Virus record (IMG/VR): IMGVR_UViG_2609459856_000007
Span: 1 to 64,000 of that record
Strand: one strand, 5' to 3'
DNA: 64,000 nt
Source of the DNA: a virus
Taxonomy: Duplodnaviria > Heunggongvirae > Uroviricota > Caudoviricetes
The translations under genes and the position numbers were made by a program. How positions within the stretch are numbered: the stretch's first letter is position 1; the number at the start of each line of letters is the position of its first letter. Below are positions 57,328 to 60,416 of this stretch, one piece after another. A model generated the notes under the pieces. The model made no database searches. It saw nothing but the letters and a program-made list of their open reading frames with translations, and was not told the origin of the DNA.

Positions 57328-57439
57328 CACCCCCCTCCCATCCTCTCTAGCGCCTGTACGAACAGATTAGATGCCTGTTCGTACAGTGATAAATTACGCA
57401 CATCAGAAAACAAATTGTTTTAACAACAAGGAAATTCTA

Positions 57440-57538
57440 ATGTCCAAAAAAACCACCAAAGCTGTACTGAAAGAGGTGCAGGATTTTCGCGACTGTGTAA
57501 AACGAGTTGTAGCGATGCTTTCAGGTAAACAGATATGA
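57440..57538 (+). CDS. 32-aa ORF translationally coupled to the vWA gene, low confidence
   Basis: ATG 57440 preceded by operator motif 57407-57421 and AAGGAAA ribosome-binding site; stop overlaps the vWA start (ATGA). Confidence 0.3.
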   Translation: MSKKTTKAVLKEVQDFRDCVKRVVAMLSGKQI

Positions 57539-59085
57539 AAGACAAGCCAGAGGGCAAATTACCAGAACTTAAATCATCTGCCAGAAAGCCGTCGGAGAGC
57601 AAAGACGAGTCCGAGGAAACGCCAGAATCAGGTGACGAGCCGTCTCATGGTGACTCTGCATCTAAGCCTGCCAAAGGCGAAGGCGATGACAAGGAAGAAC
57701 GAGAAGATGATGCATCAGAAGAGGAAGATTCTGGGGATTCCGATTTGCCTGATTCGTTAGATAAGGACTTACCTACACACGTTAAAGATATTAGTGATAC
57801 AGAAAGTAAATATACAGAAGCAGGCCACGAAGAGTCAGGAGACACCCCAGAATCCGATGCTATCGGCATGAAATCAAGTGACTCTGACACCGATGGTGAT
57901 GACGGTGAGGACTCCGATACTGATCGTGGGGAAACTGAAGAAGACGTCGAAGGCAAAAAAAATAAAGATGGTGCGGAAGTGCCCAAAGACAGTGAGTCTG
58001 GCTTTGTTCCTGCGCCGGATGAAATGACTCTGGAGGAGGCGCTAAAGGCGCTCGACGAGATGGAAGACGGAATCGGTGAAATGACCGAAGACGCACTGTC
58101 GGCCACCATCAGCAAAGAGCTTATGAGCGTCTCACCTTCTGATTATCGGCCATACGATCGATCATACGACTTTATCGGGTTGATTGATGGAGCCGAAGAG
58201 CATGTGAAGCGCACCAGAAAGACGTTCGGTGCAATACCAATGCACTCACCAGTCGACCGCTACCGTATGGTGCCAGAAGGCAGAAAACTCTTTGAACTGA
58301 AAATCGAAAAACATCTGTCTGCAGGCGTTTCTTCGACGCTGGCCAAAGACCTGGAGCGGGCCATCGCCAGCCGCAACCGAGTTCAGTTTATACCTGGTCA
58401 GAGGCGTGGGCGGATACATGGCGCGAGCCTGTATCGTCTGGCAATGAACGACGACCGAGTGTTCCGCAAGAAGGAAGACCATAGAGCGGTGAACGCGTGT
58501 GTCCAGCAGGTCATCGACTTGTCCGGCTCAATGGATGGCGTGAAGATTCAACTGGCCCTAGCCAGTGCCTATACCATTGCGGATGCTTTAGATCGTATCA
58601 ATGTCCCCAACATCATCACCGGCTTTACCACGTTCGGTAGCCCAGATTATGAAACCAGGTCGAAGCGCGGGTTTACACGCTTCGAGGCGCTCATGCTGCC
58701 CATTATCAAAAACTGGAATGAGAAAGCAAACTCTCCAGAGATCCGTGCTCGCATGGGATGCGTATGTGAGACGTTCCCCCTGCTCAATAACGTCGATGGT
58801 GAGAGTGTCGCGCAACTGGCTACCCTGTTTGCAGGGCGAATGGAGGACAAAAAGATCATGCTGGTTATGAGTGATGGGGAGCCATGTGCTACAGGTAGTG
58901 GATTCCATCAGCATTTACGAACCGTCACCAAAGAAATTGAGACCTTGAGCGACATCGAACTGATGGCTATCGGCATTCTGACCGACGAACCACGGCGTTA
59001 CTACAAAAATTACGCACTGGTTAACAGTGTTGAAGAGTTAGGGCCGTCAGTCGTCACTGAGTTATCTCGTATCATTCTTGGGTAA
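57535..59085 (+). CDS. vWA-domain protein with long acidic N-terminal region (CobT-like)
   Basis: MIDAS-type motif VIDLSGSMDG; about 170 aa of D/E/S-rich low complexity at the N-terminus. Confidence 0.65.
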   Translation: MKDKPEGKLPELKSSARKPSESKDESEETPESGDEPSHGDSASKPAKGEGDDKEEREDDASEEEDSGDSDLPDSLDKDLPTHVKDISDTESKYTEAGHEESGDTPESDAIGMKSSDSDTDGDDGEDSDTDRGETEEDVEGKKNKDGAEVPKDSESGFVPAPDEMTLEEALKALDEMEDGIGEMTEDALSATISKELMSVSPSDYRPYDRSYDFIGLIDGAEEHVKRTRKTFGAIPMHSPVDRYRMVPEGRKLFELKIEKHLSAGVSSTLAKDLERAIASRNRVQFIPGQRRGRIHGASLYRLAMNDDRVFRKKEDHRAVNACVQQVIDLSGSMDGVKIQLALASAYTIADALDRINVPNIITGFTTFGSPDYETRSKRGFTRFEALMLPIIKNWNEKANSPEIRARMGCVCETFPLLNNVDGESVAQLATLFAGRMEDKKIMLVMSDGEPCATGSGFHQHLRTVTKEIETLSDIELMAIGILTDEPRRYYKNYALVNSVEELGPSVVTELSRIILG

Positions 59086-59180
59086 TAGCTTTACCCTTAA
59101 AAATAAGTAACTGCTTACTATACAGCATAATATATTTCTATAAGATATACCCCACAAACGACAAACAGTAAGGAAAAAAC

Positions 59181-60416
59181 ATGACCGCTACTGCACTACA
59201 GCAAGAAGAACATTTGCCGGAAGCCATCGTCTGCAAGTGGTGTGGCAAATCCTTTCATTACCTGAAATCCCATATCTCTATGGGCCGTTGCGAGAATATT
59301 CCTGAGTCTGCGAAGGGTCTGGACGTGGACGAAGTGGTGAAGATGTACACCTCTGCGTTTCCAGATGAACCAACGATCTCTCGCACGGCACTGGCCAAAC
59401 TCAATGAGAAGCGTGCCGAAAAAAATTCATGCGAAGGAAAGGTAGCGGAGATTAGCGCACATCCGGGCTACGCAGGAACGGTCGAATACAAGACCGAACT
59501 GGTGGCCGCGCACGAGCTGCTTGGCGTAACGATCAAAGAGCTGGGAACGTCACGCGGAAAGCCACTACAGGTGACAGTCAACGTCAACACGCCCTATCCG
59601 GAGTTCGTACCGGAAGCGAAGAAAAACTATGTGTATGGCGACTTCGACCTGATCAAAGACATCTTTATGATGCTGGAAATCGGAATCCCGGGTTATCTCT
59701 GGGGCCATGCAGGAACCGGTAAATCTTCTCTTCCTACGCAGCTATGTGCCCTGCTAAATCGACCACTGATCCGCGCCCAGCATACGGCATCTATGGAGGA
59801 AGCGCACGTTACAGGCCAGATCCTCGCTCGCGATGGTTCCACCTATTTCGAACCGGGTTTACTAGCGCTGGCGATGAAAAATGGTTGGGTTTACCTCGCT
59901 GATGAATATGACTTCGCGTTCCCGCAGATTCTGGGTGTGTATCAGCCAGTTCTTGAAGGAGAGCCGCTGATCATCAAAGAGGCAACTGCGGACTGGCGCC
60001 GCATCACCCCGCATAAACGCTTTGCCTTCATTGGCACTGGCAACACTAACGGCTCTGGCGACGAAACAGGTCTCTATCAAGGCACAAACATCCAGAACGC
60101 AGCGAACTTCTCGCGTTTTGGCATTGTTTCAAACGTGAAGTACATGAGTACGAAGGCAGAAGTCAACATGCTGGCTGAAGCAGGCGTCATCCGCGAATAC
60201 GCCGAGAAGATGGTGAAGTTCGCGAATCTTATCCGTGAAGGTTATGAAAAGCATCAGATTAGCCAGCCAATCGGGCCTCGTGAGCTGCTGCTGTCCGCCA
60301 AAATCGGAATGATGCGCGGTGATTTCTCTGCCGGCATCGAAAAGTCGTTTATCAATAAACTTCCATCCACGTCTGCACAGGCAGCGCGTGAAGTGGTTCA
60401 GAAGATCTTTGGTTAA
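59181..60416 (+). CDS. AAA+ ATPase (MoxR/CobS-like) with N-terminal Cys/His-rich segment
   Basis: Walker [10 protein letters not shown], Walker B YLADEYD; 411 aa. Confidence 0.7.

Follow-up and report, generated by a model that had tools for sequence, protein, structure and literature searches.

The question raised by this locus is whether three adjacent ORFs in the window (the whole analysed stretch of 64,000 nucleotides, positions 1 to 64,000 of the IMG/VR record IMGVR_UViG_2609459856_000007) form a native operon, in which a 32-aa leader is coupled to a vWA protein whose N-terminus is acidic, with an AAA+ ATPase behind it, as the preliminary description had it. All the sequence features listed there were found where they had been placed. 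The ORFs, and the junction at which the first two meet, are the following:

57440-57538, + strand: 32-aa ORF, the orphaned 5′ end of a cobT-related gene (codons 1-32, then a deletion-made TGA).
57532-57535, + strand: deletion junction with GATA microhomology, at which codons 33-226 plus 1 nt (583 bp) have been lost.
57535-59085, + strand: 516-aa ORF, what is left of the cobT-related gene at its 3′ end, with an open frame from internal Met227.
59181-60416, + strand: 411-aa ORF, an intact cobS-like AAA+ ATPase with a CCHH motif, a linker and a MoxR/CobS-type AAA+ core.

The stop of the 32-aa ORF does overlap the vWA start, as its TGA (57536-57538) shares bases with the ATG (57535-57537) of the 516-aa ORF in an ATGA. 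The native SD (AAGGA) of the cobT-related gene was identified at 57428-57432, and the cobT-like and cobS-like genes are spaced by 95 nt. Both window proteins match phage cobT/cobS family profiles, the 516-aa ORF phrog_1576 (2.6e-193, covering only positions 220-728 of 729) and the 411-aa ORF phrog_249 (2.9e-108), and they are adjacent in the cobT-then-cobS order that was also detected in 76 IMG/VR loci; the earlier statement that such vWA and AAA+ CobT/CobS-like pairs are common in phages is borne out. The locus is the cobT/cobS-like pair of early genes of an SSU5-type phage-plasmid, ordinary and already annotated, in a damaged state.

Protein alignment assigned the 32-aa ORF to residues 1-32, and the 516-aa ORF to residues 227-743, of one 743-aa protein. 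The former is 100% identical to residues 1-32 of that protein in the E. coli plasmid pYUXYEH3934-1 and is collinear with SSU5_049; the intact gene encodes 781 aa in SSU5 (SSU5_049) and 743 aa in E. coli SSU5-like plasmids (WP_032187682). Local blastn across the junction gave two HSPs sharing 4 nt, and the parental flanks read ..AAACAGATA|CCTGTT.. and ..CAGGATA|TGAAAG... The window's cobT-like gene is a single gene broken by a 583-bp microhomology-mediated, frame-breaking deletion, the ATGA is its scar, and the new TGA after codon 32 appeared because the deletion shifts the frame.

The window shares its promoter region, gene order and cobS-like protein with the SSU5-type pair (SSU5_049/SSU5_050; WP_032187682 / WP_023135733), at DNA identities of 99% (E. 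coli SSU5-like plasmids) and 93% (SSU5), whereas its cobT-like gene lacks codons 33-226, out of frame, and P1 ppp takes the place of the downstream small ORF and dnaE. A probe of the junction matched 33 complete E. coli records, each of which needed two aligned pieces; 32 have the full-length spacing, and the exception, cM2a, is shorter, carrying a second, independent cobT N-domain deletion which is in-frame and different from that of the window. Similarly, a single full-length HExxH-bearing ORF lies directly upstream of cobS in 74 of the 76 assessable IMG/VR loci, and in locus L044 the cobT-like gene is split in the linker. In SSU5, in the 33 complete E. coli plasmids and in those 74 loci, as in every relative outside the window's lineage, the 32 codons are fused in frame with the rest of the gene, and a separate short leader ORF is not conserved in related loci. 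It is therefore hardly credible that the locus is a native three-gene operon headed by a coupled leader: the upstream palindrome and the overlap of stop and start are real, but the alignments refute this reading, as 583 bp are missing between GATA microhomologies and the first two ORFs come from opposite ends of one gene. An RNA-structure account of the coupling was also dropped, as the fold of 57395-57600 gave z = -0.6, and an Rfam search of 55000-61000 found nothing.

At least 12 contigs in public assemblies (NCBI, ENA, Logan) of different samples carry the deletion allele together with its junction, and one of these matches the window at 100% identity; the contigs differ at 2-13 positions over about 12 kb and are at most 0.12% from the window. 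These contigs were retrieved by exact protein identity, so that only unchanged alleles could be found. Since the junction is identical in all of them and there is no repeat there to mislead an assembler, there is practically no chance that assembly or sequencing errors produced the deletion. The persistence of the allele in several independent samples is in itself an observation that speaks against impairment.

Upstream of the pair, the region that would control its expression holds three elements:

57354-57386, no strand assigned: perfect 12-nt inverted repeat CTGTACGAACAG-N9-CTGTTCGTACAG, abutting the -10-like element of the cobT-like promoter; single occurrence in the window.
57387-57395, + strand: extended -10-like element TGATAAATT, the putative cobT/cobS-like operon promoter as read from the sequence.
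57407-57421, no strand assigned: palindrome AAAACAAATTGTTTT, a candidate operator between the -10-like element and the ribosome-binding site.

The consensus promoter scan called no promoter upstream of cobT. The palindrome is conserved in SSU5 at this site, and its form AAACA-N3-TGTTT occurs at 7 sites in the window (19771, 20995, 21373, 21864, 23512, 44025 and 57408), each shortly before the start of a + strand ORF. When up to 2 mismatches are allowed, the palindrome 13-mer has 19 matches in the window where 3.8 are expected, and in each of 100 shuffles the count stayed below 19. At the other palindrome sites, too, a -10-like hexamer precedes the palindrome by 8-12 nt. The shared operator proposed earlier in front of the operon may well be this recurring palindrome. 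The 12-nt inverted repeat is identical in SSU5 and pYUXYEH3934-1 despite diverging flanks. It was not taken as a terminator, as no T-run follows it and the scan calls none there (the sole terminator-like site was at 59029-59015 on the - strand), nor as a LexA box, as the spacing of CTGT..ACAG is 4 and not 8. That the promoter, the candidate operator and the native ribosome-binding site are intact, and that ATGA is a classic coupling arrangement, are further observations against impairment.

What is left of the cobT-like gene was then compared with its intact relatives. The 516-aa ORF consists of an acidic linker (aa 1-175), a pre-vWA "shaft" region and a vWA/MIDAS domain, the last matching Pfam CobT_C (6.9e-109, aa 309-516), while the CobT N-domain (PF06213) was absent in the Pfam search of this ORF; the remaining frame is free of further damage. 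The MIDAS motif noted before is there (DLSGS at aa 328), and the remaining MIDAS positions of the solved CobT align as well (NNVDGE and MSDGEP with CobT N518 and D546), the match to the PDB CobT chain 9uka_G being 4.8e-19 with the MIDAS residues aligned. The "poly-acidic N-terminus" stands as far as the acidity is concerned, residues 1-175 being 35% Asp/Glu, but it is not a native N-terminus: by domain comparison, the stretch is a normally internal linker between the CobT N-terminal domain (PF06213) and the vWA domain.

The window ORF thus lacks the N-terminal HExxH domain that a CobT-like protein of full length has. In the intact gene, the Pfam CobT N-domain was detected at 4.3e-35, and 146 of 147 diverse representatives carry HExxH, with H77, E78, H81, E109, D110 and E114 invariant; the diverse homologues came from a representative search, as a direct homologue search gave only 99-100% identical clusters. 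In the model of the N-domain (pLDDT 91), a helix, a 3-strand sheet and helices follow one another as described for CobT_N (bioRxiv 10.64898/2026.07.21.739949). Single-sequence and profile searches of the N-domain against the PDB gave no CobT or M48 match, only chance-level ones (E 0.011-0.83), and matches in the fold searches were not significant. Going by conservation of the HExxH...E motif alone, the phage CobT-like N-domain may also act as a protease.

The 411-aa ORF shows the expected features of a MoxR/CobS-like AAA+ ATPase, with Pfam AAA_5 (4.5e-15), Walker A GHAGTGKS at 175, Walker B VYLADE at 237 and a match to the PDB CobS chain 9ujv_A (1.4e-25), at which query residues 142-411 align with CobS 39-315; it also matches the AAA domains of CbbQ, NorQ and midasin. 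The extra Cys/His-rich segment described before corresponds to about 100 N-terminal residues added relative to the solved CobS, with a conserved zinc-finger-like CCHH motif at aa 18-31 (C18-x2-C21-x4-H26-x4-H31). The AlphaFold model has a pLDDT of 85, and the window protein has, by construction, every column that does not vary among 32 homologues. An AAA_5-type ATPase adjoining a vWA/MIDAS protein was thus found, as in MoxR-type AAA+/vWA pairs. The suspicion that the pair might be a degenerate remnant with inactive motifs held by half: the cobT-like gene is a truncated remnant, but the surviving motifs are intact.

The closest solved relatives are the cobaltochelatase subunits, and the reading of the pair as a true CobS/CobT, an auxiliary metabolic gene that would use the host CobN to raise cobalamin synthesis, has been stated as a hypothesis for viral cobST (PMC8651126). 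CobS-CobT(-CobN) (9ujv / 9uka) were the best PDB matches, Pfam assigns CobT_C, and the two systems have in common an AAA+ ring protein and an adaptor with an N-domain, an acidic disordered linker, a shaft and a vWA/MIDAS domain; the MIDAS residues (D-x-S-x-S, N, D) and Walker A/B of cobaltochelatase CobT/CobS are conserved in the window pair. However, both proteins fall far below the NCBIfam equivalog cut-offs (TIGR01650, CobS: 85.4 bits vs 558.55; TIGR01651, CobT: 76.7 bits vs 759.05), no CobN-like ORF was found in the window (its largest ORF is a tail fibre), and the genes sit among the replication genes of an SSU5-type phage-plasmid. In addition, the phage family differs in the CCHH region added to CobS and the invariant HExxH of CobT_N, a domain undetectable by sequence against PDB CobT. 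E. coli is not known to have a CobN, and Salmonella uses the CbiK route. By these comparisons the window pair is not a cobaltochelatase, and a role of this kind is very improbable. An anti-phage defence system was considered as well and rejected, as PADLOC gave no match for either protein or for the full-length relative.

The MoxR-vWA chaperone/cochaperone pairs of jumbo phages, in which the vWA protein has an N-terminal metallopeptidase (Iyer et al. 2021, PMC7824862), follow the same domain logic as the intact relatives of the window pair, with an HExxH domain and vWA beside a MoxR-clade AAA+ ATPase. For them a role in virion assembly was proposed (PMC7824862) and the peptidase-like domain is present, whereas the window pair lies in a phage-plasmid replication block and has this domain deleted. 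In the split cobT genes of haloarchaeal virus HHTV-2 (PMC8651126) and of L044, the vWA part is on a separate ORF, as in the window, but there the N-domain ORF is retained, while the N-domain coding sequence of the window is physically missing.

At its 3′ side, the pair ends an approximately 50-kb SSU5-like segment fused into the P1 ppp gene, with the following features:

60418-60427, no strand assigned: right junction of SSU5-like DNA and P1 ppp, at which SSU5-like CGTGCGTAA resembles P1 CGTGAATAA.
60419-60820, + strand: 3′ fragment of P1 ppp (Ser/Thr phosphatase), from blastn against P1 NC_005856; the 5′ part lies at about 10019-10317 of the window.

Identity to SSU5-like DNA extends up to 60426 and P1-specific sequence begins at 60427, so the breakpoint lies 8-10 nt after the AAA+ stop at 60416, in agreement with the 8 bp given in the preliminary description. 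The usual downstream neighbour, dnaE, is absent from the window's cobS-like locus because only 10 nt of SSU5-like DNA follow the cobS stop codon. P1 homology in the window is patchy. No record in PLSDB or among complete E. coli genomes spans the right-hand junction, which is present in the contigs with the deletion allele.

Literature searches returned no experimental work on the SSU5/pHCM2 cobST genes, and the solved CobST complex, with the roles of its CobT_N, shaft and MIDAS (bioRxiv 10.64898/2026.07.21.739949), serves as the model. By analogy, in the intact module the cobS-like protein would form an ATP-driven ring, and the CobT-like adaptor would dock on it with its N-terminal domain, enter the pore with its shaft and meet the client with its MIDAS face; CobN could not be this client in E. 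coli. The pair would be transcribed from a promoter whose palindrome is common to other genes of the element. The truncated copy would be an adaptor without its docking/protease-like domain, a 516-aa protein that could be made only through termination-reinitiation at the ATGA overlap, dnaE is gone from its place downstream, and the carrier would be a rearranged P1::SSU5 cointegrate. Because the docking domain is lost, reinitiation is needed, dnaE is gone and the carrier is rearranged, we consider that this damaged SSU5-type cobT/cobS-like pair, with its 583-bp deletion, is most likely vestigial and impaired in function, a remnant that a plasmid lineage carries with it.

Alternatively, the truncated module could be functional and selected, the N-domain-less vWA adaptor still serving the cobS-like ring as a MoxR-vWA chaperone and the loss of HExxH being advantageous in a plasmid-only life. 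The shaft/vWA part (CobT_C) by itself contacts the CobS ring and engages its pore in the solved CobST (bioRxiv 10.64898/2026.07.21.739949), the promoter, ribosome-binding site and ATGA overlap are in place, the remaining frame and cobS are undamaged, the allele recurs across the 12 or more contigs, and the gene was disrupted independently elsewhere (the cM2a in-frame deletion and the L044 linker split). Against this, the deletion is out of frame, and the full-length gene and its near-invariant HExxH are so widely kept, in 74/76 IMG/VR loci and 32/33 complete plasmids, that strong selection for the N-domain is indicated. Hitch-hiking in a clonal plasmid can also explain the persistence of the allele; selection within the lineage is not measurable, as the contigs differ too little and the exact-sequence look-up finds unchanged alleles only. 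We regard this alternative as unlikely. Even less probable is its stronger form, that selection maintains CobT′ without its N-domain as an active protein. Made by termination-reinitiation at the ATGA scar, it would work with the cobS-like ring as a reduced MoxR-vWA machine in a P1::SSU5 hybrid confined to plasmid life, and the recurrent loss or splitting of HExxH (window lineage, cM2a, L044) would reflect selection against a protease-like activity; if true, this activity would be only useful, or harmful, outside lytic growth. The independent N-domain deletion of cM2a could, for its part, mean that loss of the domain is tolerated or even favoured.

The apparent leader-peptide operon is corrected to a deletion scar, and the lineage provides a natural CobT N-domain knockout of a widespread, functionally uncharacterised phage module. 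This module is routinely mislabelled as "porphyrin/cobalamin biosynthesis", although its hosts are without CobN and its N-domain keeps an invariant metalloprotease-type motif. The P1::SSU5 cointegrate around the damaged pair also illustrates the fusion of two phage-plasmid families through microhomology.

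All three ORFs of the preliminary description, a 32-aa leader followed by a vWA/AAA+ (CobT/CobS-like) pair, were identified on the + strand at their coordinates, and what it had observed at the locus was confirmed. The features discussed here are as follows.

57354-57386: perfect 12-nt inverted repeat, CTGTACGAACAG-N9-CTGTTCGTACAG, overlapping the -35 region of the cobT-like promoter
57407-57421: palindrome AAAACAAATTGTTTT, at which the preliminary description began its finding
57440-57538, + strand: 32-aa ORF (ORF call)
57535-59085, + strand: 516-aa ORF (ORF call; Pfam CobT_C, 6.9e-109)
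59181-60416, + strand: 411-aa ORF (ORF call; AAA_5 ATPase)
59226-59279: C-x2-C-x4-H-x4-H motif, residues 16-33 of the cobS-like protein (alignment A2)
10317/10318 and 60426/60427: cointegrate junctions

The TGA of the 32-aa ORF shares the sequence ATGA with the next ATG (57535-57538), as claimed. The 516-aa protein, matched by Pfam CobT_C at 6.9e-109, is indeed a vWA protein with a MIDAS, at which DLSGS is found at residue 328 and the other MIDAS positions align to solved CobT. Walker A and Walker B are present in the 411-aa AAA_5 protein, which also carries the extra Cys/His N-terminal segment ascribed to it, about 100 residues beyond solved CobS and including C18-x2-C21-x4-H26-x4-H31. The gene pair is of an already annotated kind.

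The 32-aa ORF is not the separate leader gene that had been proposed, but the 5′ end of one cobT-like gene cut by a deletion. Over 57311-60426, identity was 93% with phage SSU5 and about 99% with many E. coli SSU5-like plasmids. The SSU5 start codon equivalent to 57440 opens a single 781-aa gene (SSU5_049), and that of the E. coli SSU5-like plasmid pYUXYEH3934-1 opens a 743-aa gene annotated as 'cobaltochelatase CobT-related protein'. Aligned with the 743-aa protein, the 32-aa ORF covers residues 1-32 and the 516-aa ORF residues 227-743; in the DNA, 583 bp of the parental cobT-like gene are missing from the window. The parental flanks read ..AAACAGATA/CCTGTT.. and ..CAGGATA/TGAAAG.., and the window reads ..AAACAGATA/TGAAAG..; therefore, the deletion sits between two GATA microhomologies. 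This length is not divisible by three, so the reading frame is lost, and the junction gave rise both to the stop (TGA) of the short ORF and to the ATG (internal Met227) that overlaps it. A junction-spanning probe matched 33 complete E. coli genome records, all 33 in two pieces, which were separated by the full-length distance in 32 of them. A single full-length ORF lies directly 5′ of cobS in 74 of 76 assessable IMG/VR loci, and 147 of the 150 top family representatives are 560-890 aa long. Thus, the ancestral form is not the short one: a deletion broke a single gene, and the distinctive 'leader ORF' is its scar.

The deletion removed the N-terminal domain. The intact cobT-like protein matches both Pfam CobT (PF06213; residues 11-331, 4.3e-35) and CobT_C, whereas the 516-aa ORF matches CobT_C only, with its phrog_1576 match running from profile position 220 onward. 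The poly-acidic N-terminus reported for it is real in composition (residues 1-175 are 35% Asp/Glu), but this stretch is normally an internal linker. In cobalt chelatase structures, CobT is divided into an N-terminal domain that resembles peptidase family M48C and docks on the CobS small subdomain, about 90 disordered linker residues, and a C-terminal variant vWA that reaches into the CobS ring with its 'shaft' and contacts CobN through its MIDAS face (preprint, bioRxiv 10.64898/2026.07.21.739949). On this layout, the deleted segment would correspond to the docking domain. HExxH is kept in the N-domain of 146 of 147 phage-type CobT-related representatives, together with an invariant ED...E (alignment A4; proteins P0241-P0390), and the database names 'porphyrin biosynthesis' and 'cobaltochelatase CobT-related' mask a probable metalloprotease-type site in the relatives. 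Other damaged copies were also detected. E. coli cM2a plasmid p1 (NZ_JBYTPB010000002.1; locus L013, 2611-4452) has an independent in-frame 390-bp deletion of residues 66-195, within which HExxH lies; the cobT-related gene is split in the acidic linker at IMG/VR locus L044, and only its last ~77 codons are left at locus L018.

The cobS-like gene is intact. Its protein holds every invariant column of 32 homologues (45-89% identity), the Walker motifs and conserved arginines among them. The CCHH motif is shared across the family, with C18 invariant and C21 and H31 at least 90% conserved in these homologues, and is modelled as a beta-hairpin and short helix, followed by disordered residues 82-98 and the AAA+ core. 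This N-terminal C-x2-C-x4-H-x4-H is common to phage-type CobS proteins, whereas cellular CobS lacks it; we found no earlier description of it.

Although the closest PDB relatives of the pair are CobT and CobS, we rejected a cobaltochelatase: scores were far under the NCBIfam equivalog cut-offs (CobT, 76.7 vs 759 bits; CobS, 85.4 vs 558 bits), and no CobN-like ORF was found within the window. E. coli is not known to have CobN. The proposed takeover of host CobN by viral CobST (PMC8651126) thus misfits the present host. Nor does a cobaltochelatase remnant with inactive motifs, considered in the preliminary description, fit the remaining intact motifs, although the cobT-like gene is damaged by the deletion. 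The setting of the pair in SSU5 and its E. coli relatives is a group of replication genes, with DNA ligase/tRNA-Asn on one side and DNA polymerase III alpha on the other. The pair matched no known defence system, and our literature search found no experimental study of these genes.

Seven copies of AAACA-N3-TGTTT were found within the SSU5-like part of the window (19771, 20995, 21373, 21864, 23512, 44025 and 57408), each with a -10-like hexamer 8-12 nt upstream and a + strand start codon shortly downstream; the 13-mer with up to 2 mismatches gave 19 matches vs 3.8 expected. Near-matches also lie at 22762 and 23997, and a ParA-like gene at 44073 is among the genes so preceded. The recurrence before + strand starts agrees with the 'shared operator' suggested earlier; judged from sequence, the palindrome is a reasonable candidate for an operator, or a promoter-proximal element, common to these genes of the SSU5-like element. 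SSU5 too keeps the palindrome, the 12-nt inverted repeat and the SD 5′ of its cobT-like gene. The inverted repeat occurs only once within the window, and its conservation in SSU5 is 100% despite diverged flanks; a typical terminator was rejected since no T-run follows.

The pair lies at the edge of a cointegrate. The cobS-like stop is as near to the phosphatase breakpoint as described, ending at 60416, with SSU5-like sequence to 60426 and P1 (NC_005856) from 60427. The 50.1-kb SSU5-like segment (10318-60426) sits exactly between P1 81058 and 81059 in ppp, the P1 Ser/Thr phosphatase gene, with zero P1 bases lost, and its right end CGTGCGTAA resembles P1 CGTGAATAA left of the break. Compared with pYUXYEH3934-1 it is circularly permuted and runs from the type I restriction-modification genes to 10 nt past cobS, so about 10 kb, including dnaE, is absent. 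The insert looks like a cointegrate formed via microhomology, and we infer, as the simplest reading, that one crossover at the 9-nt near-repeat joined a P1-type plasmid to a circular SSU5-like plasmid that was already deleted. P1 homology in the window is patchy (P1 53412-54465, 57282-58941, 61484-63315, 64240-65708, 80374-81058 and 81050-83858). Within 1284-10317, where all of these but the last were matched, the P1-type backbone is rearranged, and sheath, par, many tail genes, dmt and ban are either absent or replaced. A 4.2-kb block (53155-57310) between tRNA-Asn (53041-53115) and the cobT-like promoter encodes PhoH, two small ORFs, a tyrosine integrase, an XRE-like regulator and a 70-aa ORF; present in E. 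coli SSU5-like plasmids and absent from SSU5, it may represent an integrase-borne islet next to the tRNA gene.

At least 12 public draft or metagenome contigs carry the P1 junction together with the 32-aa ORF and the exact 516-aa protein; among them, GCA_000700365.1 (JNMN01000021.1) matches the window at 100% identity and the rest at 99.88-99.98%. Neither PLSDB nor a set of 5,426 complete E. coli genomes yielded a junction-spanning record. Persistence of the allele, together with its intact signals, the independent in-frame loss of residues 66-195 in cM2a and the linker split at L044, would suit the main alternative, a form that is functional, or even favoured, without the N-domain; against this stands the near-universal retention of the full-length gene, and the lineage is too clonal for selection to be measured. 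The remaining motifs of the pair are intact. If made at all, the truncated adaptor would rely on termination-reinitiation at the ATGA, which has only a weak AGG some 10 nt before it, and would be devoid of the docking/protease-like domain. The cobT/cobS-like module is probably impaired and carried passively.
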